DNA from: Escherichia coli
GTDB lineage: Bacteria > Pseudomonadota > Gammaproteobacteria > Enterobacterales > Enterobacteriaceae
NCBI RefSeq assembly: GCF_044324785.1
Contig: NZ_CP172131.1
DNA length: 8,910 bases
Direction: 5' to 3' (one strand)
The notes beneath the pieces were generated by a model that had not been told where the DNA came from, did not search any database, and was given only the letters and a program-made list of their open reading frames with translations. A program made the translations under genes and the position numbers. Positions 1-8,910 of the stretch are shown in pieces. Positions within the stretch are counted from its first letter, which is position 1. Every line of letters begins with the position of its first letter.

Positions 1-69
1 TATTACCTTTCGAAGAAATTTTTGACATCCTCTACGCCCTGAAGGACCGGGTTTTACGGCGTACCAGAT

Positions 70-95
70 AAAAAAACCCCTCTACTGAAGAGGGG
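70..95 (-). terminator. Intrinsic terminator-like hairpin (minus-strand orientation)
   Basis: 7-bp GC-rich stem cccctct/agagggg (77-83/89-95) with 5-nt loop; the A-run at 70-76 on + gives a T-run after the hairpin on the - strand. Confidence 0.5.
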
Positions 96-218
96 TAGTG
101 TAAGGAACTTGCTGATTTTCTTGATATTATTAACCATCAATAACTGAGCATACAAAAAATAACAAAACTCTGACACAGATACAACCATCCCTCTTTGTAT
201 AAGACCGATGTGCATCTC

Positions 219-302
219 AAAAAAGAAGCGTGTTTCTGGAACACAGAACAACAATGCACATTGTAGCCAACAAATTCACACCAGAAACACGCTCTGTTTT
301 TT
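219..302. repeat. Long inverted-repeat element A: 13-bp perfect arms flanking a 41-nt loop, with A-run and T-run on the outside
   Basis: agcgtgtttctgg (227-239) is the exact reverse complement of ccagaaacacgct (281-293); aaaaaa at 219-224 and tgtttttt at 295-302 make the unit symmetric and terminator-like in both orientations. Confidence 0.6.
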
Positions 303-372
303 AATTTACACAAGAATATATGTCTGGAAAATCAGGAAGAAGAAATTAATGGGCATTCTGTATACGAAGGGA

Positions 373-434
373 GAGCGCGTTTCCGGTGCCCCATATTAGA
401 TATTATCCCTGCAACAAACACCAGAGACGCGCTC
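373..434. repeat. Inverted-repeat element B, related to element A
   Basis: Arms gagcgcgtttccggtg (373-388) and caccagagacgcgctc (419-434) pair over 16 positions with one mismatch and one G-U wobble, around a 30-nt loop; arm sequence is a variant of the element A arm. Confidence 0.55.
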
Positions 435-469
435 ATAATTCTTCTAGCGTAAATGATCCTTTCAGGCAA

Positions 470-497
470 GAAAAAAGCCGTGATTCTGTATCACGGC
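470..497 (-). terminator. Intrinsic terminator-like hairpin, strongest in minus orientation
   Basis: 8-bp stem gccgtgat/atcacggc (477-484/490-497), loop tctgt; aaaaaa at 471-476 gives a T-run on the - strand; a weaker T-rich tail (cttaatttta) follows on +. Confidence 0.45.
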
Positions 498-896
498 CTT
501 AATTTTATCGAAAACACGGATTTTAGTATGCACATGACTGTACTCCTGTGGAGTACAAGGAAATCATAATCAGCGACCAAACCATTTATCAACAGAAAAC
601 CAACATATTGATGTTATTTTTGTGACAAATGTTACAAATTCGAAACCACTGTATTTTTACTGCAACAAAATCTGGTTGATCTACAAGTTACACTGGGGTA
701 AAAAGTTGTCCGGAATGTTTCTGCGTAGTAAAGCCTCTAGCCGGATTGCCTTTGCAAAAACGCAGGAACGTTCCCCCCTTCATCAGTACTCCTGACGCTG
801 TAAGGAGCTGACTGATGCAGACAGGGCTGATGATATCTAATAAAAGCTATCTCATTTTTGCGCGTACATAAAATAAATCAGGCACTTCCCTACACT

Positions 897-925
897 CCCC
901 CTCCGGAATTGAGGGGGTTTTCTTT
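897..925 (+). terminator. Rho-independent terminator
   Basis: Stem ccccctc/gaggggg (897-903/911-917), 7-nt loop, followed by ttttcttt (918-925). Confidence 0.6.
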
Positions 926-1041
926 ACAATGTAAATAAATTGCTTGCGTAAAGTTCAAAAAAACTGCAAATTTTTACTGTAGTGTCGAGCTTCATGTAGC
1001 TCACCAGGGCATGGACTAAAAAGAAGTAAACCCATCTTTTA

Positions 1042-1067
1042 CCCCCCCTTATACGGGGGGTTCTTTA
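1042..1067 (+). terminator. Rho-independent terminator-like hairpin
   Basis: C-run (1042-1048) pairing with G-run (1055-1060) across loop ttatac, followed by ttcttta. Confidence 0.5.
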
Positions 1068-1361
1068 TAGCACAAAGAACACTTATAATTTATCATCTCA
1101 CAGCTATAAATATAAAAGAATAATATTCTAAACTACAGTTATTTATGCAGAACATAACATCAAACTCACAATAAATATAAAACAATTATTTTATAACTGT
1201 TCACTTATTATATTCAGACATATCAGAAACACGACTCAATTCTTTTTTATTTAACAAAATCCATAAAAAACTTATGGTTGAAATCACATTTAAACTGTGA
1301 AGGATATCATCCGGAGAAATTTTTCAATCCGACACTCCATAGAATGGACCTTTAAGACTTT

Positions 1362-1389
1362 ATCCTCATCATGTATGAGGATTTTTTTT
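1362..1389 (+). terminator. Rho-independent terminator
   Basis: Perfect 8-bp stem atcctcat/atgaggat (1362-1369/1375-1382), 5-nt loop, then a run of seven T (1383-1389). Confidence 0.7.
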
Positions 1390-1520
1390 CTGGCAAACAG
1401 TATCTTTCAGTAATCCTTGCTCAGTTCCGATTCTGACGTATCCCCGTGTGGATCTGAAAAGGAGATAATTACGCTCTGTGGCCAACAGGAATAACTCAAG
1501 CAGCTCCTCTCTGATACCAT

Positions 1521-1750
1521 CAGAAGAAGCATTAAACGCATTCTGGCGTCGATTACAGAAGAAGCGGAACGCGTTCCAGGCTCCTGTTGCTATACACACT
1601 ACCCACACTAACCCCATGGTTTTTGAGCGCCAGAAACGCGTCCGTATGCGTTTTAACGCGTTCCTGTGTTTTCAGCAAGGCCTGACTGAAGCTAGTTCCT
1701 AGTGCCCTGAACCAACCATTATCCAAAAAAATGCACCGGAAACGCGCTGA
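1521..1750. repeat. Array of at least five AACGCGTT-type palindromic motifs (iteron-like), same motif family as the arms of elements A and B
   Basis: Copies at about 1535-1546 (aaacgcattctgg), 1567-1578 (gaacgcgttcca, centred on the perfect palindrome GAACGCGTTC), 1633-1644 (gaaacgcgtccg), 1655-1665 (taacgcgttcc) and 1741-1749 (aaacgcgct). The 15-mer caccggaaacgcgct at 1735-1749 equals the reverse complement of 374-388. Two direct repeats beginning cagaagaagc sit at 1521 and 1556. Confidence 0.55.
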
Positions 1751-1772
1751 CAACACTTTAGCCTGTCTTTGG

Positions 1773-3326
1773 TTACCATCCCAGCGACGGGCCATCCAGT
1801 GTCCGTTCCTGTATTTCCAGATGGCGCTCACGCTCTAGGAATAGCTCATGTTCACGTTCCTGTATCAGTAGTTCGTCCCTTATCTCCTGCTCTCGCTGTA
1901 TAACTGGCTCAAGTGTTCTGTCTGCTCGCTCAAGTGCTGCACCTGCTGACTCAACTGCATGACCCGCTCGTTCAGCATCGCGTTGTCCCGTTGCGTAAGC
2001 GAAAACATCTTCTGCAATTCCACGAAGGCGCTCTCCCATTCGTTCAGCCGCTGCATATAGTCCTGTTGCAGCTGCTCTAAGGCGTTCAGCAAATGTGTTT
2101 CCAGCTCTGTCACTCTGTGTCACTCCTTCAGATGTACCCACTCTTTCCCCTGAAAGGGAATCACCTCTGCTGATTTCCCGTACGGAAGGACCAGAAATTT
2201 CCTGTTCCCGTCCTGCACGAACTCCACGCCCCATGTCTTCGCGTTCAGTTTCTGCAATGTCTCTTCCTGCTTCCTGATATCTTCCAGGTTCGCCTGTATC
2301 CTCCCGCCAAGATACCAGAGCGTCCCGCCACTCGCGGTAAACAGGAGAAAGACTATCCCCAGTAACATCATGCCCGTATTCCCTGCCAGCTTTAACACGT
2401 CCTTCCTGTGCTGCCTCATCGCCTCTTTCACCCCTTCCCGGTGTTTCTCCAGCGATTCCTCTGTCGAGGCTGTGAACAGGGCTATAGCGTCTCTGATTTT
2501 CGTCTCGTTTGATGTCACAGCCTCGCTTACAGATTCGCCGAGCCTCCTGAACTCGTTGTTCAGCACTTTCTCTGTAGATTCGGCTCTCTCTTTCAGCTTT
2601 TTCTCGAACTCCGCGCCCGTCTGTAAAAGATTGCTCATAAAACGCTCCTTTCAGCCTGATATTCTTCCCGCCGTTCGGGTCTGCAATGCTGATGCTGCTT
2701 CGCGTCACCCTGACCACTTCAAGCCCCGCCTCTGTGAGCGCCTGAATCACATCCTGACGGCCTTTTATCTCCCCTACATGATAAAGAGCGTCTATCCCGC
2801 GTGTGACGCTCTCAGCAAGCGCCTGTTTCGTTTCCGGCAGGTTATCAGAGAGAGTCAGTATCCGGCGGTTCTCCGGGGCGTTGGGGTCATGCAGCCCGTA
2901 ATGGTGATTCACCAGCGTCTGCCAGGCATCAATTCTCGGCCTGTCTGCCCGGTCGTAGTACGGCTGGAGACGTTTTCCGGTCTGTAGCTCCATGTTCGGA
3001 ATGACAAAATTCAGCTCAAGCCGTCCCTTGTCCTGGTGCTCCACCCACAGGATGCTGTACTGATTCTTTTCGAGACCTGGCATCAGTACGCGCTCAAAGC
3101 TCGCCATCACTTTTTCACGTCCTCCCGGCGGCAGCTCCTTCTCCGCGAACGACAGAACGCCTGACGTGTATTTCTTCGCAAATGGCGTGGCATCGATGAG
3201 TTCCCGGACTTCTTCCGGATTACCCTGAAGCACCGTTGCGCCTTCGCGGTTACGCTCCCTCCCCAGCAGGTAATCAACCGGACCACTGCCACCACCTTTT
3301 CCCCTGGCATGAAATTTAACTATCAT
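1773..3326 (-). CDS. mbeA: MbeA mobilisation relaxase (MOBP/HEN family), 517 aa
   Basis: ORF 1773..3374 trimmed to the internal Met giving MIVKFHARGKGGGSGPVDYLLG (ATG at 3326..3324). Carries the catalytic Tyr context PVDYLL and a HEN-type motif (WVEHQDKGRLELNFVIPN). The 517-aa length matches my recollection of ColE1 MbeA, and the start overlaps the mbeC stop as in ColE1. Confidence 0.9.
   Translation of the reverse strand: MIVKFHARGKGGGSGPVDYLLGRERNREGATVLQGNPEEVRELIDATPFAKKYTSGVLSFAEKELPPGGREKVMASFERVLMPGLEKNQYSILWVEHQDKGRLELNFVIPNMELQTGKRLQPYYDRADRPRIDAWQTLVNHHYGLHDPNAPENRRILTLSDNLPETKQALAESVTRGIDALYHVGEIKGRQDVIQALTEAGLEVVRVTRSSISIADPNGGKNIRLKGAFYEQSFTDGRGVREKAERESRIYRESAEQRVQEARRICKRGCDIKRDENQRRYSPVHSLDRGIAGETPGRGERGDEAAQEGRVKAGREYGHDVTGDSLSPVYREWRDALVSWREDTGEPGRYQEAGRDIAETEREDMGRGVRAGREQEISGPSVREISRGDSLSGERVGTSEGVTQSDRAGNTFAERLRAAATGLYAAAERMGERLRGIAEDVFAYATGQRDAERAGHAVESAGAALERADRTLEPVIQREQEIRDELLIQEREHELFLERERHLEIQERTLDGPSLGW
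1880..2113 (-). CDS. mbeD: MbeD-like small mobilisation protein nested out of frame within mbeA
   Basis: 77-aa ORF lying wholly inside mbeA in another frame, the arrangement described for ColE1 mbeD. Start is GTG (2113..2111) with AAGGAG 9 nt upstream; coiled-coil-like sequence. The start-codon choice is uncertain. Confidence 0.6.
   Translation of the reverse strand: MTELETHLLNALEQLQQDYMQRLNEWESAFVELQKMFSLTQRDNAMLNERVMQLSQQVQHLSEQTEHLSQLYSESRR
2120..2638 (-). CDS. mbeB: MbeB mobilisation protein nested out of frame within mbeA, 172 aa
   Basis: ORF inside mbeA in an alternative frame with a perfect SD (gaaAGGAGcgtttt then ATG at 2638..2636); a hydrophobic segment (MMLLGIVFLLFTASGG) suggests membrane anchoring; size matches ColE1 MbeB as recalled. 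Confidence 0.8.
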   Translation of the reverse strand: MSNLLQTGAEFEKKLKERAESTEKVLNNEFRRLGESVSEAVTSNETKIRDAIALFTASTEESLEKHREGVKEAMRQHRKDVLKLAGNTGMMLLGIVFLLFTASGGTLWYLGGRIQANLEDIRKQEETLQKLNAKTWGVEFVQDGNRKFLVLPYGKSAEVIPFQGKEWVHLKE

Positions 3327-3672
3327 CCCGCGCCCCCTGTTCCCTGACGGCCAGACGCAGCCGGCGCAGCTCATCCCCGATGGCCATCAGTGCGGCCACC
3401 ACCTGAACCCGATCACCGGAAGACCACTGCCCGCTGTTCACCTTCCTCGCGGTCTGATTCAGGTTATTCCCGATGGCGGCCAGCTGACGCAGTAACGGCG
3501 GTGCCAGTGTCGGCAGCTTCCCGGAACGGGCAACCGGCTCCCCCAGGCAGACCCGCCGCATCCATACCGCCAGTTGTTTACCCTCACAGCGTTCCAGTAA
3601 CCGGGCATGTTCATCATCAGTAACCCGTATCGTGAGCATCCTCTCGCGTTTCATCGGTATCATTACCCCCAT
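3316..3672 (-). CDS. mbeC: MbeC relaxase accessory protein (ribbon-helix-helix type)
   Basis: ORF with the N-terminal motif MKRERMLTIRVTDDEHARLLERC typical of MobC/MbeC accessory proteins; sits immediately upstream of mbeA and overlaps it by 11 nt. The true start is ambiguous among three in-frame ATGs (3672, 3663, 3654); the longest is given. Confidence 0.8.
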   Translation of the reverse strand: MGVMIPMKRERMLTIRVTDDEHARLLERCEGKQLAVWMRRVCLGEPVARSGKLPTLAPPLLRQLAAIGNNLNQTARKVNSGQWSSGDRVQVVAALMAIGDELRRLRLAVREQGARDDS

Positions 3673-3703
3673 GAACAGAAATCCCCCTTACACGGAGGCA
3701 TCA

Positions 3704-3895
3704 GTGACTAAACAGGAAAAAACCGCCCTTAACATGGCCCGCTTCATCAGAGGCCAGACATTAACGCTGCTGGAGAAACTCAACGAACTGGACGCGGATG
3801 AACAGGCAGATATCTGTGAATCGCTTCACGACCACGCCGATGAGCTTTACCGCAGCTGCCTCGCACGTTTCGGGGATGACGGTGAAAACCTCTGA
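3704..3895 (+). CDS. rop: Rop/Rom, RNA I-RNA II pairing modulator, 63 aa
   Basis: GTG start at 3704 preceded by GGAGG (3694-3698). The translation VTKQEKTALNMARFIRGQTLTLLEKLNELDADEQADICESLHDHADELYRSCLARFGDDGENL matches Rop as I recall it from pBR322 except for one residue (G for S at position 17). Confidence 0.95.
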   Translation: MTKQEKTALNMARFIRGQTLTLLEKLNELDADEQADICESLHDHADELYRSCLARFGDDGENL

Positions 3896-3979
3896 CACAT
3901 GCAGCTCCCGGAGACGGTCACAGCTTGTCTGTGAGCGGATGCCGGGAGCCGACAAGCCCGTCAGGGCGCGTCAGCAGGT

Positions 3980-4050
3980 TTTAGCGGGTGTCGGGGCGCA
4001 GCCCTGACCCAGTCACGTAGCGATAGCGGAGTGTATACTGGCTTAGTCAT
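3980..4050 (+). other. bom/oriT region with predicted MbeA nic site (CTGG|CTTA, nick between 4041 and 4042)
   Basis: Sequence ggggcgcagccctgacccagtcacgtagcgatagcggagtgtatactggctta lies between rop and the origin exactly where pBR322/ColE1 carry bom; tactggctta at 4036-4045 contains the nic motif I recall for ColE1. Boundaries are approximate. Confidence 0.65.
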
Positions 4051-4217
4051 GCGGCATCGGTGCGGATTGTATGAAAAGTGCACCATGTACGGTGTGAAAT
4101 GCCGCACAGATGCGTAAGGAGAACATGCAGATGCCGATGCTCTTCCGCTTCCTCGCTCACTGACTCGCTGCGCTCGGTCGTTCGGCTGTGGCGAGCGGTG
4201 TCTGCTCACTCAAAAGC

Positions 4218-4226
4218 GGTGATACT
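4218..4226 (+). promoter_or_regulatory. DnaA box (ttatccaca) in the ColE1-type origin region
   Basis: Exact 9-mer match to the DnaA box consensus at the position where pBR322 has its DnaA box downstream of the RNA-DNA switch. Confidence 0.6.
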
Positions 4227-4719
4227 GTTATCCACACAATCAGGGGATAACGCCGGAAAGAACATGTGAGCAAAAAACGAAGACCCCAGAAAAGGCCGCG
4301 CCGGAGGCGCTTTTTCCATAGGCTCCGCCCCCCTGACGAGCATCACAAAAATCGACGCTCAAGTCAGAGGTGGCGAAACCCGACAGGACTTAAAGATACC
4401 AGGCGTTTCCCCCCGGAAGCTCCCTCGTGCGCTCTCCTGTTCCGACCCTGCCGCTTACCGGATACCTCTCCGCCTTTCTCCCTTCGGGAAGCGTGGCGCT
4501 TTCTCATAGCTCACGCTGTTGGTATCTCAGTTCGGTGTAGGTCGTTCGCTCCAAGCTGGGCTGTGTGCACGAACCCCCCGTTCAGCCCGACCGCTGCGCC
4601 TTATCCGGTAACTATCGTCTTGAGTCCAACCCGGTAAGACACGACAAAGCGCCACTGGCAGCAGCCGTTGGTAACTTGGTTAGCAGAGCGATGATGGCGC
4701 AAATGGTGCAACAGAGTTC

Positions 4720-4749
4720 TTGAAGTAGTGGCCCGACTACGGCTACACT
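4720..4749 (+). promoter_or_regulatory. RNA I promoter (-35 ttgaag 4720-4725, 18-bp spacer, -10 tacact 4744-4749)
   Basis: Conserved with the pMB1 RNA I promoter context (gttcttgaagt...ggctacact) directly upstream of the RNA I 5' end acagtatttgg. Confidence 0.7.
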
Positions 4750-4755
4750 GGAAGG

Positions 4756-4863
4756 ACAGTATTTGGTATCTGCGCTCTGCTGAAGCCAGTTACCTCGGTT
4801 AAGCAGTTCCCCAACTGACTTAACCTTCGATCAAACCGCCTCCCCAGGCGGTTTTTTCGTTTA
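4756..4863 (+). ncRNA. RNAI: RNA I antisense copy-number control RNA (about 108 nt)
   Basis: 5' region acagtatttggtatctgcgctctgctgaagccagttacct is identical to ColE1/pMB1 RNA I as recalled. Three stem-loops are retained, including ggttaag...cttaacc and the terminal hairpin aaaccgcctccccaggcggtttttt acting as terminator. Confidence 0.8.
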
Positions 4864-4871
4864 CAGGCAGC

Positions 4872-4900
4872 AGATTACGCGCAGAAAAAAAGGATCTCAA
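4872..4900 (-). promoter_or_regulatory. RNA II promoter (-35 TTGAGA as complement of 4895-4900; -10 TAATCT as complement of 4872-4877)
   Basis: The reverse complement reads ttgagatcctttttttctgcgcgtaatctg, matching the pMB1 RNA II promoter as I recall it. Confidence 0.7.
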
Positions 4901-4909
4901 GAAGATCCT
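4884..4909 (-). terminator. Intrinsic terminator downstream of kil, overlapping the RNA II promoter
   Basis: Stem aggatct/agatcct (4891-4897/4903-4909), loop caaga, with the A-run at 4884-4890 on + giving a T-run on the - strand just after the kil stop at 4920. Confidence 0.55.
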
Positions 4910-4919
4910 TTGATCTTTT

Positions 4920-5057
4920 CTACTGAACAGAGATCCCCGTCAGTTTAGAAGAAGATGATGGAGCCACAGTCCCTCCCTGAACATCACGTATATAGTTAGC
5001 CTGACATCCAACAAGGAGGTTTATAGCTAATATTCCCACAAAAAATCTTTTCCTCAT
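4920..5057 (-). CDS. kil: Colicin E1 lysis/release lipoprotein (Kil), 45 aa
   Basis: My own translation of the - strand (below the 60-aa ORF-track cut-off): [45 protein letters not shown], with lipobox LVGC and SD aagga 8 nt upstream of the ATG at 5057..5055. This is a typical colicin lysis protein placed downstream of cea and imm. Confidence 0.85.
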
Positions 5058-5104
5058 AACTCGATCCTTATAAAATGAAAAGAATATATAACGAGGTTTA
5101 ATTT

Positions 5105-5446
5105 ATGAGTTTAAGATACTACATAAAAAACATTTTGTTTGGCCTATATTGCACACTTATATATATATACCTTATAACAAAAAACAACGAAGGGTATTAT
5201 TTCCTAGCGTCAGATAAGATGCTATACGCAATCGTGATAAGCACTATTCTATGCCCATATTCAAAATATGCTATTGAACACATATTTTTTAAGTTCATAA
5301 AGAAAGATTTTTTCAGAAAAAGAAAAAATCTAAATAATGCCCCCGTGGCAAAATTAAACCTATTTATGCTATACAATCTACTTTGTTTGGTCCTAGCAAT
5401 CCCATTTGGATTGCTAGGACTGTTTATATCAATAAAGAATAATTAA
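5105..5446 (+). CDS. imm: Colicin E1 immunity protein (Imm), 113 aa integral membrane protein
   Basis: Translation [44 protein letters not shown]... matches the colicin E1 immunity protein as recalled; SD gagg 8 nt upstream; convergent with cea, with the two stop codons overlapping by 4 bp. Confidence 0.95.
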
Positions 5447-7008
5447 ATACCCAACACATCATTTATAGTATTAAGTTTATTCTTGTCAATAAAGGCACAT
5501 AGAATGCCTGTAACAATAGCAATCCCCCAGATACCTAATGTAGTTCCAGCAAGCACACTAAAAAGTAAAACAACAATATAACTAACTCCAGCATCTACAG
5601 TTTTCTTCTCTAATGTAAGAAATAGTGGCTTCCAGTCACCTGTATCCTTAATTTTTAGGATATCAGATACCACATCATATCCAAAAGAAACATGTCCCGT
5701 AATCTTCAAGTACTTAGCAAACTGATCTAAATGCTTAGCCCAGTCTTCATACTTAACCGATTCCAGTGCATTGAAAATCGCATCACGGTCTGCTTTGCTG
5801 AATTTCTTATTTAAAACATCCTTGTATTTTTCAAAAGCAGCTAGAGCTTCATTCACATTGCTGATTTTCTTACCTTTAGACTTATCAGCAAGTTCCTGTG
5901 CCATTTTTGAATATTTTTCACCATATTTTTCAGATAGCGTTTGATAAAAGCTAACTGTTGCATCCACAGCATCCTTAATCTGCGAGTTCAGGAGATTAGT
6001 CTGCGCTGTTTTCAAATTTTCTTCAGATTCATGAACACGTAAAACAGCTGTATTACGATTATTATTAGCCTGAGACATAGCCCCCTGAATTCCATTTATC
6101 TCAGCATTAAGTTGGTTAATACGCGTTTCTGATGCTGTTACCTGTTTTTGTTTTTCCTCCATAATCTTACCGGCTCCCGTCCGTCGACTGGTGGCATAGA
6201 AAAAAGGACGACTCTGAAGCGGATCATTAGCTCTTGGTGACAATTTTTTGACCAGTTCATCAAGTTCCTTATATTTAGCAGATGCCTGAGCCAGCTCATT
6301 TCGTTTTCCGGACAGCGTATTCATTTCTGCATCACGGGCATGAATACTGGAGCTTAAACGGGTATTGAGAGTCTTAATCTCTTCATCCACTTTCGCCAGC
6401 TCAGATTGTGCAGCAGCAAGATTTTTTTGTGCCACCTCCACTGCCCGGGCCTCTTCATTCAATGCTGCCAGCCGTTTCTCTTCAGCTTCAGCCAGTTTCA
6501 ACTGGCGTTCTGTTTCAGCCTGCTCCTTCTCTATCTCTTTACGTCGTTGTTCTGCCTCCTGAAAAGCCTTTTCCGCAGCTTCCGCTTCTTTACGGGCTTT
6601 TTCTTCTGCTTTTGCAAGGCGCAACCGCTCTGCTTCTGCCTGCATCGCTGCATTATTGGCATGAGCCAGGTCAATAACCTCCGGATGAGTGGAATTATGA
6701 CGAAGCGCCTCATTCACAATATCCTTCAGATGTTGAGTCAGCGCATCCCGGTTTGCTTTTGCTTTAGCCTGTGCTTCTGCGGCAGCTTTTGCCCGGGCAG
6801 CCTGTTCTGCCTGCGTTTTCTTCAATTGAGCAGTAGACCATTTAGCTGTGGCATGAATGGCTGCAGAACTTTCACTTTTGCTACCTCCAGTTCCACCACC
6901 GCCGCCAGAGCCACTCCCGTCTGGATTACCATTCAAAAGAGTAATGATTACCTGCCCCTTATCATCATAAGGAACACCATCTTTATAGTACGCTACAGCT
7001 GTTTCCAT
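5443..7008 (-). CDS. cea: Colicin E1 (pore-forming colicin), 521 aa
   Basis: N-terminus [39 protein letters not shown] (Gly-rich translocation domain), a long Ala/Glu/Lys-rich coiled-coil central region, and a C-terminal channel domain with the hydrophobic hairpin [33 protein letters not shown]; SD gagg 8 nt upstream. Confidence 0.95.
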
Positions 7009-7055
7009 TATAAAATCCTCTTTGACATTAAAAACAAATAGTTAAAAGCAATATA

Positions 7056-7086
7056 CTGTATATATAACCACTGGTTTTATATACAG
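7056..7086. promoter_or_regulatory. Two overlapping LexA (SOS) boxes between the cea promoter and start codon
   Basis: On the - strand the sequence reads CTGTATATAAAACCAG followed by TGGTTATATATACAG: the first is a perfect CTG-N10-CAG box and the second overlaps it by one base, the standard colicin dual-box layout. Confidence 0.85.
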
Positions 7087-7090
7087 CTTA

Positions 7091-7119
7091 AAATTACGCC
7101 GCTGCATTTTCCCTGTCAA
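7091..7119 (-). promoter_or_regulatory. cea (colicin) promoter: -35 TTGACA (complement of 7114-7119), 17-bp spacer, -10 TAATTT (complement of 7091-7096)
   Basis: Consensus -35 with a 17-bp spacer, immediately upstream of the LexA boxes and about 85 bp upstream of the cea ATG. Confidence 0.75.
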
Positions 7120-7138
7120 CCCTGTGGATTTTCATTTT

Positions 7139-7154
7139 TGTGAAAACGATCAAA
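7139..7154. promoter_or_regulatory. Putative cAMP-CRP site (tgtga-aaacga-tcaaa) in class I position upstream of the cea promoter
   Basis: 9 of 10 match to TGTGA-N6-TCACA; centred about 62 bp upstream of the inferred transcription start; consistent with the known catabolite sensitivity of colicin E1 synthesis. Confidence 0.5.
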
Positions 7155-7267
7155 AAAACAGCCACCCACACCACGTGCTATTCCCACCCGATGCCACAAA
7201 AACCAGCACAAACATTACCGTTCTCCGGCCCCAGTATGTTTTACTGAAACCATGATATGAGACATTA

Positions 7268-7705
7268 ATGGGACACTGTCACTTCATGGCATGGCACACA
7301 CTCCAGAACGCACTGAAAATGACAGGCAGATCGCGTTCACAGTTTTACCGTGATATGCGCGCAGGCCTTGTCAGTTATCGTACAGGCCAGGACGGACGGC
7401 GGGAGTTTGAAACCAGTGAACTGATCCGGGCATACGGCGAATTAAAGCAGGATGAGACACCAGAAAGGCACAGTGCGGGACAGGCAGAAAATCCACATGA
7501 TCAGCAGACAGAACGCATTCTCCGGGAGCTGAATGAGCTGAGACAATGCCTGACACTGATGCTTGAGGACAAACAGGCACAGGCTACGGAACGCCGGCGC
7601 CAGGAAGCCGAACGGGAACAGCTACATAAAGAGATAGAGCAGCTCAGGCAGGCACTGGAGCAGGAAAAAAAACGGGGATTCTGGGCCAGACTGTTCAGCC
7701 GGTGA
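7268..7705 (+). CDS. Hypothetical protein: N-terminal helix-turn-helix-like segment plus charged coiled-coil C-terminus (145 aa from the first ATG)
   Basis: ORF with an AlpA/MerR-like HTH-looking segment (MTGRSRSQFYRDMRAGLVSY) and an E/R/Q-rich heptad-like C-terminal half. None of the three candidate starts (7268, 7286, 7319) has a good SD, so start and expression are uncertain. Confidence 0.5.
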   Translation: MGHCHFMAWHTLQNALKMTGRSRSQFYRDMRAGLVSYRTGQDGRREFETSELIRAYGELKQDETPERHSAGQAENPHDQQTERILRELNELRQCLTLMLEDKQAQATERRRQEAEREQLHKEIEQLRQALEQEKKRGFWARLFSR

Positions 7706-7788
7706 GCACCGACTGCAAGTGATGATAAGATAGTCAGCGGTTAAATATAAGTCACTGAGTACAAAGATTTAAAGGTAAGGAGACACTC

Positions 7789-8208
7789 ATGAGACGTTCC
7801 GGCGGCACACTGTATCTTATCGCCCTGCTGACAGCGGCAACGGTCCTGACAGCCTGCACGCCAAAGGGCAGTGTGGAACAACATACCCGGCATTACGTTT
7901 ATGCATCAGACGATGGTTTTGATCCTAACTTTTCCACCCAGAAGGCCGACACAACACGAATGATGGTGCCTTTTTTCCGGCAGTTCTGGGATATGGGAGC
8001 AAAGGATAAAGCGACAGGAAAATCACGGAGTGATGTGCAGCAACGCATTCAGCAGTTTCACAGCCAGGAATTTTTAAACTCACTCCGGGGCACAACTCAA
8101 TTTGCGGGTACTGATTACCGCAGCAAAGACCTTACCCCGAAAAAATCCAGGCTGCTGGCTGAGACGATTTCTGCGGTTTATCTCGATGGCTACGAGGGAA
8201 GACAGTAA
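7789..8208 (+). CDS. Predicted lipoprotein, 139 aa, function unknown (candidate entry-exclusion-type protein)
   Basis: Strong SD (taaggag, 6-nt spacing) and a signal peptide with lipobox (MRRSGGTLYLIALLTAATVLTAC, Thr at +2). The stop lies 5 bp before the cer core. Confidence 0.7.
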   Translation: MRRSGGTLYLIALLTAATVLTACTPKGSVEQHTRHYVYASDDGFDPNFSTQKADTTRMMVPFFRQFWDMGAKDKATGKSRSDVQQRIQQFHSQEFLNSLRGTTQFAGTDYRSKDLTPKKSRLLAETISAVYLDGYEGRQ

Positions 8209-8212
8209 GTGG

Positions 8213-8242
8213 ATTTACCATAATCCCTTAATTGTACGCACC
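8213..8242 (-). other. cer-type XerC/XerD core recombination site for plasmid multimer resolution
   Basis: atttaccataatcccttaattgtacgcacc is the exact reverse complement of the ColE1 cer core as I recall it: GGTGCGTACAA (XerC arm), TTAAGGGA (8-bp spacer), TTATGGTAAAT (XerD arm). Confidence 0.85.
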
Positions 8243-8420
8243 GCTGAAATGCATTCAGCGCAATCACGGCAGCAGACAGGTAAAAATCGCAACAACCCCC
8301 CCGAAAAACTACCGCGATCGCGCCTGATAAATTTTAACCTTATGCATACCTATGCATCCAGGTGAATCACAAGCGAATTTCCTTACTGAGACGACTGAAA
8401 CGGTTTTTTTTCACAATTTT
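8243..8420 (-). other. Inferred cer accessory region (ArgR/PepA-binding sequences; expected location of the Pcer promoter for Rcd)
   Basis: In cer the roughly 180-bp accessory sequences flank the XerC arm, which here faces higher coordinates. A near-palindrome gctgaa-atgca-ttcagc (8243-8259) abuts the XerC arm. The extent is inferred, not seen; Rcd would run on the - strand through the core. Confidence 0.45.
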
Positions 8421-8679
8421 CAGCTGTTTTCGATTCCACAAAATAGAAGTTACAGGATAGGGATTAATCCCCTTCGCCGCCAAGGGGAGCAGGATGAGTC
8501 AGGGGAATGTCTATTCACCTGCGCTGTACAGGCTGCCAGGTAAAAGTATTCGCTGCGGCACGATACTCTTTTGCCCTCATAGCCTTTGCGCTTCTTACTT
8601 TTCGTTCTTCCAGAATCATTCTTAAGACATTTTCCCGCACTTTTCTCTAACTTCCCGTGGCAATTTATCTCTGCCGGAC

Positions 8680-8910
8680 TGAACCGCCCCGGAAATCCTG
8701 GAGACTAAACTTCCTGAGAAAGATGTAAACAGGATGACTAAAAATACTCGTTTTTCCCCCGAAGTCCGTCAACGGGCAGTTCGTATGGTTCTGGAAAGCC
8801 AGGGCGAATATGACTCACAATGGGCGGCAATTTGTTCCATTGCTCCAAAGATTGGCTGTACGCCAGAGACCCTGCGTGTCTGGGTTCGCCAGCATGAGCG
8901 GGATACCGGG
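8680..8910 (+). mobile_element. Left end of an IS3-family insertion sequence resembling IS629 (partial; continues past the window)
   Basis: Terminal sequence tgaaccgccccggaaatcctggagactaaacttcctgagaaag starting at 8680 with the 5'-TG typical of IS3-family ends, followed 54 bp later by the orfA start. Confidence 0.8.
8734..8910 (+). CDS. IS3-family transposase OrfA (HTH N-terminal part), truncated by the window end
   Basis: Translation [59 protein letters not shown] is open to the last base; it matches IS629-group OrfA N-termini as recalled. Confidence 0.8.

Follow-up and report, generated by a model that had tools for sequence, protein, structure and literature searches.

The DNA analysed here, referred to as the window, is a stretch of 8,910 nt from Escherichia coli that carries the genes of a ColE1-type colicin plasmid, a block of largely non-coding accessory DNA, the left end of an insertion sequence (IS), and a 46-nt transposon derivative. 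Comparison by megablast with PLSDB and with complete E. coli genomes identifies it as a complete, autonomous circular plasmid of 8,910 bp that belongs to the pSMS35_8 family. The record NZ_CP135675.1 is identical to the window, rotated by 112 bp (window base 1 is record base 113). Base 8910 continues into base 1, and the flanking sequence is therefore already inside the window. Complete circular plasmids of 8,899-8,910 bp, at least 14 in number, align with it end to end at 99.2-100% identity, always in two megablast pieces, and the family is also found in metagenome contigs. The hosts of the pSMS35_8-like plasmids are mostly E. coli from poultry. pSMS35_8 (NC_010485.1), which has 99.2% identity to the window, has been described as an 8.9-kb, kil-carrying plasmid of strain SMS-3-5 (PMC6234761). 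The plasmid is already in public databases, with its transposase fragment annotated, and all of its parts are of known kinds.

Annotation of the identical records (RefSeq, PLSDB) provides a ColE1-type set of mbeA/B/D, MobC, rop, lysis, immunity, exc1, and exc2, along with a colicin E1-like pore-former. The window thus combines RNAI/RNAII control and rop, the mbe genes, a colicin/immunity/lysis operon, exc1/exc2, and cer on an autonomous circular replicon, the features of a ColE1-type mobilisable colicin plasmid. RNAI is the sole Rfam match in the whole window at E ≤ 1. For cer, the sequence GGTGCGTACAATTAAGGGATTATGGTAAAT is the XerC/XerD core of ColE1; measured from this core, the IS lies about 440 bp away, as a preliminary description of the letters had placed it. 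The 3' end of mbeA given there agrees with the annotation. No useful literature came from a search with the IS629 repeat and the core sequence of cer. The coordinates of the features are collected in Table 1.

Table 1. Features of the 8,910-bp plasmid, in order of position.
Feature	Position	Strand	Basis or detail
Native cargo resuming past the deletion	1-21		Collinear with pLH10-b-1-D and IncK2/Z copies
Mini-derivative of a TnpB-type IS200/IS605 element, 46 nt	22-67	minus	
AT-rich non-coding DNA, about 1.55 kb	72-1629		28-42% GC; hairpin- and terminator-rich
Hairpins in the non-coding block	76-96, 222-302, 366-445, 474-500, 897-917, 1041-1061, 1362-1382		
Candidate small RNA	about 556-468	minus	Promoter-like site 592-563, 5' hairpin, terminator 500-474
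Right recombination junction	1629-1643		Shared motif GCCAGAAACGCG(T/C)CC
ColE1-type backbone downstream of the mbeA stop codon, not cargo	1630-1772		93% identity to pDEC5A-3 from 1630
mbeA	1773-3326		3' end at 1773; RefSeq annotation
RNAI (RF00106)	4758-4860		Rfam, 87.4 bits
cer crossover core (XerC arm, 8-bp spacer, XerD arm)	8213-8242	minus	GGTGCGTACAATTAAGGGATTATGGTAAAT
cer accessory sequences	on to about 8419		Backbone homology to 6,888-bp relatives
Leftmost 95 bp of accessory DNA	8420-8514		Matches only in the same small-plasmid family
Perfect palindrome GGGATTAATCCC	8460-8471		Within tAGGGATTAATCCCCtt
Hairpin CCCCTT-CGCCGCC-AAGGGG	8469-8487		6-bp stem
3' part of the gene for a small basic 81-aa protein	8515-8679	minus	IncK2/Z plasmids have it intact (WP_045148228.1)
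IS629-type (IS3 family) left-end stub, IS bases 1-231	8680-8910	plus	Gapless alignment
orfA codons 1-59	8734-8910	plus	
Deletion junction	8899-8910		12-nt microhomology: CGGGATACCGGG in the IS, CGGGATATCGGG in native DNA

The extent of the accessory DNA is given by alignment to natural 6,888-bp ColE1-like plasmids, such as pDEC5A-3 (NZ_CP038396.1). In these the backbone at 1630-8419 is 91-94% identical with the same gene order, whereas the rest of the window, a segment of 2,120 bp (8420-8910 together with 1-1629), is replaced by 99 unrelated bp. The segment occupies the interval from the outer edge of cer to the 3' flank of mbeA, and such cargo-less relatives are common. The proposal that the DNA beyond cer, the IS piece, and the block at the window start are accessory to a ColE1-type backbone is borne out by this comparison, and the homology break-points that were to be sought fall at 8419 and 1630, with 8420-8680 outside the ColE1 backbone. 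Cargo had been suggested for 1-1770; a foreign block is indeed located there, but it stops at 1629 and the remainder up to mbeA is backbone. An argument from size, in which a ColE1-like module of 6.9 kb was too long against 6.6 kb for ColE1, loses its force with natural cargo-less relatives of 6,888 bp.

The same segment, with the same two junctions and 98-99% identity, is found in pLH10-b-1-D (NZ_CP100534.1) and p14408_3, which are ColE1-type colicin R plasmids. They differ from the window in their colicin operon and in the IS629 stub, in place of which they keep 154 bp of native DNA. On the left, homology to pDEC5A-3 stops at 8419 and homology to IncK2/Z plasmids begins at 8515. On the right, the IncK2/Z-type homology stops at 1643 and the ColE1-backbone homology starts at 1630. 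The two homologies overlap in GCCAGAAACGCG(T/C)CC, which they share and which is one occurrence of CC[AG]GAAAC[AG]CG, a motif repeated in the cargo as well as in the backbone; this overlap points to short-homology recombination. The cargo was probably gained in this way, with the right crossover inside the short shared motif CCAGAAACGCG. It brought no second replicon, with one RNAI (by Rfam) and one rop (by annotation) in the whole window. About 1.9 kb of the pSMS35_8-like plasmids is annotated by no pipeline.

Beyond the small plasmids, homologues of the cargo are located in IncK2/Z plasmids, which are conjugative and mostly from poultry, where the module sits between the relaxase gene nikB and trbC. 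Among 5,426 complete E. coli genomes the cargo is found in 36, in every case on a plasmid and never in the chromosome, and in several strains a small plasmid and a module-bearing IncK2/Z plasmid coexist. The nikB-trbC region is crowded with IS2-like, IS1, IS629-like, IS256, IS66, and IS21 elements. The level of sequence identity, only ~79-86%, counts against the IncK2/Z copy as the direct donor; the source may instead have been the plasmid pool that also gave rise to this IS-ridden accessory region. Module fragments also resemble, in a patchy manner, the non-coding DNA that lies downstream of mobQ on a Col8282-type plasmid of 5.6 kb.

The small ORFs at 8420-8680, which the preliminary description found unconvincing, are not genes, and the real feature of this interval is a decayed gene on the opposite strand (8515-8679). 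In the small plasmids this 81-aa gene is frameshifted by a 1-nt deletion, common to the window and pLH10-b-1-D in alignment, and in the window its first ~106 nt have also been lost to the IS event. Homologues of the protein form a narrow family of hypothetical proteins, which has no Pfam or NCBIfam match and no known domain. A palindrome quoted for this interval as agggattaatccct is not literally there: the sequence reads tAGGGATTAATCCCCtt, and the perfect palindrome within it is GGGATTAATCCC. The hairpin reported beside it was found as written. By arithmetic, 8.9 kb should contain about 2 perfect palindromes of 12 nt and about 13 hairpins whose stem has 6 bp, and both features are at chance level. 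They are also present in pLH10-b-1-D, and have no other support.

The mini-element at 22-67 is a precise insertion relative to the empty site in the IncK2/Z plasmids (…AATTT/TTGACATCCTCTACGCCCTGAAGGACCGGGTTTTACGGCGTACCAG/ATAAAAAA…). Read on the minus strand, it immediately follows TTAT (the ATAA of plus-strand positions 68-71), ends in …GATGTCAA, and has no target duplication; ATAA follows every copy examined. The end found downstream of tnpB is fused to the end found upstream of tnpB via a shared hairpin half, GCCCTGAAGG, such that the 46-50-nt form consists of the first ~20 nt of one end and the last ~30 nt of the other. Both termini are also found on either side of tnpB in the phage-plasmid pE148-2 and around a gene-less form of ~365 bp in a Klebsiella plasmid, and the core abuts tnpA/tnpB in Xylella and in viral contigs. 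Since its termini are those that flank tnpB, the mini-element is what an extreme internal deletion has left of a TnpB-type IS200/IS605 element. A consensus 50-mer occurs in 2,023 plasmid records, mainly from Klebsiella, Escherichia, and Salmonella, with others from Xylella and Allochromatium, and the copies are almost always unannotated.

Several other identities were considered for the 50-nt motif: the C-terminus of a gene, a sigma-70 promoter (TTGACA…), a structured RNA (z about 0), an oriT nick-like site, and, by eye, a Xer/hix/sfx-like recombination site. All were dropped, as the same sequences are the ends of TnpB elements. Searching the literature for the motif yielded nothing beyond an indel string, without annotation, in one Shigella paper. 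In the window copy the stem is eroded (CTACG vs CCGGG) and the fold is no better than that of shuffled sequence; with its single hairpin in this state, the mini-element is probably immobile. Its ends are identical to those of a TnpA/TnpB-encoding element and it is inserted 3' of a fixed short motif without duplication, while of the two subterminal hairpins for TnpA-catalysed excision it has only one position. It should be filed as a remnant or derivative, and not as a mobile member of the group. Read in frame, it gives a protein tail …DILYALKDRVLRRTR followed by a stop, which explains a spurious 82-aa ORF in pLH10-b-1-D and the match to phrog_1925, the only match that NCBIfam and PHROGs gave for the small ORFs. 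A very common scar of 46-50 nt derived from IS200/IS605 elements contributes spurious ORF tails (…DILHALKDGVLRRTG and a stop, matching phrog_1925) to the annotations of many plasmids and phages.

The rest of the cargo, at 72-1629, has no credible conserved ORF: local near-identity accounts for every case in which start, frame, and stop agree. The indels that separate its two lineages, that of the small plasmids and that of the IncK2/Z plasmids, are of 1, 3, 5, 8, 12, and 14 nt, and are not multiples of three overall. A 26-aa ORF on the minus strand at 1035-955 was set aside, being conserved only by virtue of lying inside a 97%-identical block. Conservation between the lineages is patchy, with blocks of 95-100% identity beside blocks of 45-65%. 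The candidate small RNA has a single-stranded stretch that is 100% conserved between them, and its fold has a z-score of -4.2 in the window and -5.3 in the IncK2/Z copy. The stem of its terminator (474-500) differs between the two lineages by a compensatory change from C:G to T:A. Further lineages of the cargo were sought by a scan of genome contigs (0 matches), a scan of metagenomes (the same two lineages only), and a sensitive plasmid search with 455-600 (34 records, from the same lineages).

These properties raise the alternative that the 1.55-kb block is a selected functional module, which provides regulatory sRNAs, an 'insulator' of bidirectional terminators that separates cer from the mob operon, or both. 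It has 10 terminator-like sites where 1.5 are expected, several of its folds reach z-scores of -4 to -5, and blocks of 95-100% identity persist in lineages that are ~79% identical overall. The compensatory change in the 474-500 stem and the patchy similarity to the region downstream of mobQ point in the same direction, as does location: the module adjoins a relaxase gene in two small-plasmid backbones and lies between nikB and trbC in IncK2/Z. Against this, the block has no Rfam match, in its Col8282 version the candidate RNA has no folding advantage over shuffled sequence, and the IncK2/Z copy shows an eroded 222-302 hairpin. Many IS insertions are also tolerated by the module, and cargo-less 6,888-bp relatives are common. 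Repeated independent insertions (IS2-like, IS1, IS21, IS629-like, and one other IS3-family element) support a dispensable module. There are only two real lineages, too few for covariation statistics. A selected module appears doubtful on this balance. A broader form of the idea would make the 2-kb segment a portable non-coding module that is exchanged among ColE1-type and IncK2/Z plasmids, leaves fragments in Col8282-type plasmids, and encodes at least one new candidate sRNA (minus strand, about 556-468) along with hairpins that regulate or insulate plasmid functions; this we regard as unlikely. The patchy conservation and the compensatory stem change could mean that parts of the block are under selection. 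The block is most likely neutral passenger DNA, a reading that is rated above a functional RNA module, and is possibly a terminator block or a carrier of an sRNA.

The IS fragment begins exactly at 8680, where an IS3-family left end had been recognized, and runs without gaps to 8910. Bases 8680-8709 match exactly the first 30 bases of the annotated IS629 in phage 2851, which form its left inverted repeat. Over 8680-8910, identity is 94.8% to the 1,310-bp IS629 of this phage (FM180578.1) and 97.4% to a 1,309-bp variant in the Stx2a phage LC727840.1, far beyond chance. Copies ~96% identical to the LC727840.1 variant are labelled IS629 or IS1203v by their depositors, and the identities and labels together make 'IS629-like, IS3 family' a correct name. 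What had been described as an IS629-like insertion is, in extent, a stub of 231 bp, and the whole circle holds no other part of IS629: a BLAST search of the full 1,309-bp element against the doubled circle returned only bases 1-231, without orfB and without the right end, and in the same search a 25-nt match of the right repeat proved to be the left repeat itself. The right end that the preliminary description proposed to look for is absent from the replicon, an outcome that by its own account speaks against its reading.

RefSeq annotates 8734-8910 as 'transposase, incomplete, missing C-terminus', and NCBIfam finds a weak IS3 match in the stub ORF. The open frame crosses the origin and adds 13 unrelated codons (window 1-39) to give an ORF of 72 aa. 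Compared with a functional member of the IS3/IS629 group, the stub retains the left terminal inverted repeat, which starts with TG, but has neither the matching right terminal inverted repeat nor the pair of orfA and orfB with a programmed -1 frameshift and a DDE transposase. The absence of the right end and of a transposase would leave it unable to transpose. It is probably without function, and at most could be the source of a predicted 72-aa peptide derived from OrfA.

The history of the stub can be read from a base-by-base comparison of the deletion junction with IS-free pLH10-b-1-D and with the full IS. pLH10-b-1-D matches the window continuously over 8200-8679 and over 8899-1900, with 154 bp of native DNA between. 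The left IS junction is sharp (…CTGCCGGAC/TGAACCGCC). At the other side, CGGGATACCGGG (IS bases 220-231) and CGGGATATCGGG share 11 of 12 bases, with the consensus CGGGATA(C/T)CGGG, and since base 8906 is the IS-type C the crossover lies within 8907-8910. The simplest history that fits these observations has two steps. A full IS629-type element would have inserted between 8679 and 8680, interrupting the beginning of a small, previously frameshifted gene. A subsequent illegitimate deletion, with end points at IS base 231 and in the 12-nt native look-alike, probably took out ~142 bp of native DNA and ~1,078 bp of the IS, namely its right end, all of orfB, and the remainder of orfA. A full IS629 at this site would give a right-end junction reading CCGGGGCGGTTCA, 2-4 nt, and AACTTTAACTGTGC. 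As no record fits, by its size, an intermediate with full-length IS629 between 8679 and 8680, insertion followed by deletion is inferred from the end product.

The IS-free copies also fix the order of acquisition. In pLH10-b-1-D, p14408_3, and a metagenome contig, the backbone junctions at 8419/8420 and 1629/1630 are identical to those of the window, and these relatives with the same cargo and junctions show that the cargo is older than the IS and was not brought by it. They equally overturn the earlier view of the IS as the agent that interrupted the backbone. An alternative in which IS629 delivered the cargo in a single acquisition, through one-ended or composite transposition or through resolution of an IS-mediated cointegrate, could draw on the IncK2/Z module, which is flanked by IS3-family elements with an IS629-like end abutting its right side. 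Apart from the IS-free copies, it is contradicted by the place of the stub, 260 bp inside the left edge of the cargo and not at a junction of cargo and backbone, and by IS positions that differ between the two lineages, and we consider it very improbable. Hardly credible is the reading that a complete IS629 interrupts the ColE1 backbone, with the window part of a cointegrate or integrated plasmid and the other IS end outside it: the IS left end does lie at the window edge, and a 22,976-bp record (NZ_CP080265.1) contains the whole window plus further copies of window parts, but the window closes into a circle of 8,910 bp that complete plasmid records match exactly, the sequence past 8910 is window base 1 and native cargo instead of IS, no right IS end or second replicon is found anywhere, the single IS end is inside the cargo, which also does not fit a composite transposon, and the homologues of the cargo have no chromosomal sites. 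That reading mistook an artefact of the circular origin for a truncated view of a full IS.

Taken together, the window is an autonomous ColE1-type colicin plasmid that very probably acquired its cargo by recombination, was later hit by IS629 and trimmed by a microhomology deletion, and carries what is most likely neutral passenger DNA. It illustrates an ordinary route by which small plasmids gain and erode accessory DNA, from short-homology acquisition through an IS hit and a microhomology deletion to a dead IS stub. It also provides a clean worked example of how a circular-origin artefact can be misread as a full IS that has been cut off.

Comparison with known systems sets each part of the plasmid in context. 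The sister plasmids pSMS35_8, NZ_CP135675.1, and CP070397.1 are 99.2-100% identical over all 8,910 bp, cargo and IS stub included, and show no difference of substance. With IS629/IS1203 of Stx phages the stub shares the first 231 bp at 94.8-97.4% identity, including the left inverted repeat and orfA codons 1-59. It differs from IS629 in lacking bases 232-1310, and with them the leucine-zipper part of OrfA, the frameshift site, orfB, and the right inverted repeat; no target duplication can be recovered, the right junction having been lost to the deletion. For the mini-element, the transposon-adjacent motif and the gene-less PATE forms of IS200/IS605 elements provide a published framework (PMC10055086). 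Like PATEs, the element at 22-67 has TnpB-type terminal sequences, is inserted 3' of a fixed TTAT, and is without target duplication and terminal inverted repeats; compared with the ~365-bp gene-less form in Klebsiella, it has only 46 nt and a single, partly eroded hairpin. The accessory region between nikB and trbC of IncK2/Z plasmids (pEGY2, pCh101, and pTB-nb2) is homologous to 8515-8679, 1-21, and 72-1643 at ~79-86% identity, and also has a counterpart of the native bases lost from the window. It differs from the window in that its 81-aa gene is intact, the 46-nt mini-element is absent, and other IS (IS2-like, IS1, IS629-like, and IS256 remnants) are located at other positions.

Different plasmids carry independent insertions in the accessory segment of about 2 kb (the cargo), and the elements involved include IS2-like, IS629-like, IS1, IS21 (ISEc12), and another IS3-family element. 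Because it has been struck independently by several types of IS, this module is a region tolerant of insertions and is probably dispensable. Within the same E. coli strains, mostly from poultry (LH10-b-1, PKF11, GF60, EF5-18-41, and Ch1), small ColE1-type plasmids that bear the module are found together with conjugative IncK2/Z plasmids carrying a copy that is ∼80% identical. This co-residence fits a pairing of helper and mobilized plasmids that are able to exchange DNA. The relaxase gene mbeA is intact in the window, where the RefSeq annotation covers 1773-3326; it is marked as partial or split by RefSeq in some near-identical or related plasmids. In a separate observation, a 22 976-bp record described as complete, NZ_CP080265.1, contains the entire window in one piece along with additional partial copies; a multimer or a cointegrate could account for this, as could an assembly artefact.

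The sequence CC[AG]GAAAC[AG]CG is repeated in the cargo as well as in the backbone. It makes up the arms of two long hairpins, one at 222-302 and the other at 366-445, which are very stable (z about -5). The right junction between cargo and backbone coincides with one of its copies. The cargo also includes a candidate small RNA, in which a 5′ hairpin is followed by a linker that is 100% conserved and by an intrinsic terminator, with a compensatory change in the terminator stem of the IncK2/Z copy. Its fold z is -4.2 in the window and -5.3 in the IncK2/Z copy, and a search of Rfam gave no match for it.

Features of the window and of the sequence records compared with it.
Feature	Record	Position	Strand	Remarks
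IS-bearing sites in module	L006	6353-7690; about 9306 onward
IS-bearing site in module	L013	about 7090-7860
IS-bearing site in module	L008 (p14408_3)	8845-11417
IS-bearing site in module	L018	5022-5670
CC[AG]GAAAC[AG]CG	window	239, 281, 386, 421, 1223, 1630, 1736	both
Candidate small RNA	window	468-556	minus	∼90 nt; promoter-like site at 592-563
TnpB-type IS200/IS605 scar	window	22-67	minus	46 nt; ATAA at 68-71
TnpB-type IS200/IS605 element	L060	about 2195-2560
TnpB-type IS200/IS605 element	L061	about 1225-2565
TnpB-type IS200/IS605 scar or related form	L027	1502-1541
mbeA ORF, compared region	window	1773-3374
mbeA, compared region	L004	3126-3824
mbeA, compared region	L007 (pLH10-b-1-D)	4833-6398
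Stretch with no annotated gene	L031	3665-5391		downstream of mobQ

The scar, 46-50 nt long, consists of the two ends of a TnpB-type IS200/IS605 element, fused via a common hairpin half. Its consensus 50-mer has matches in 2,023 plasmid records, many of them longer forms, and the site is nearly always without annotation. When read in frame, the scar adds spurious tails to ORFs (…DILHALKDGVLRRTG*), and these tails match phrog_1925 as well.

A 5.6-kb MOBQ plasmid of Col8282 type, NZ_CP128977.1 (L031), has ∼1.7 kb without an annotated gene 3′ of mobQ. The mini-element occurs there as two inverted copies and a third, degenerate one, together with scattered fragments that resemble the cargo of the window.
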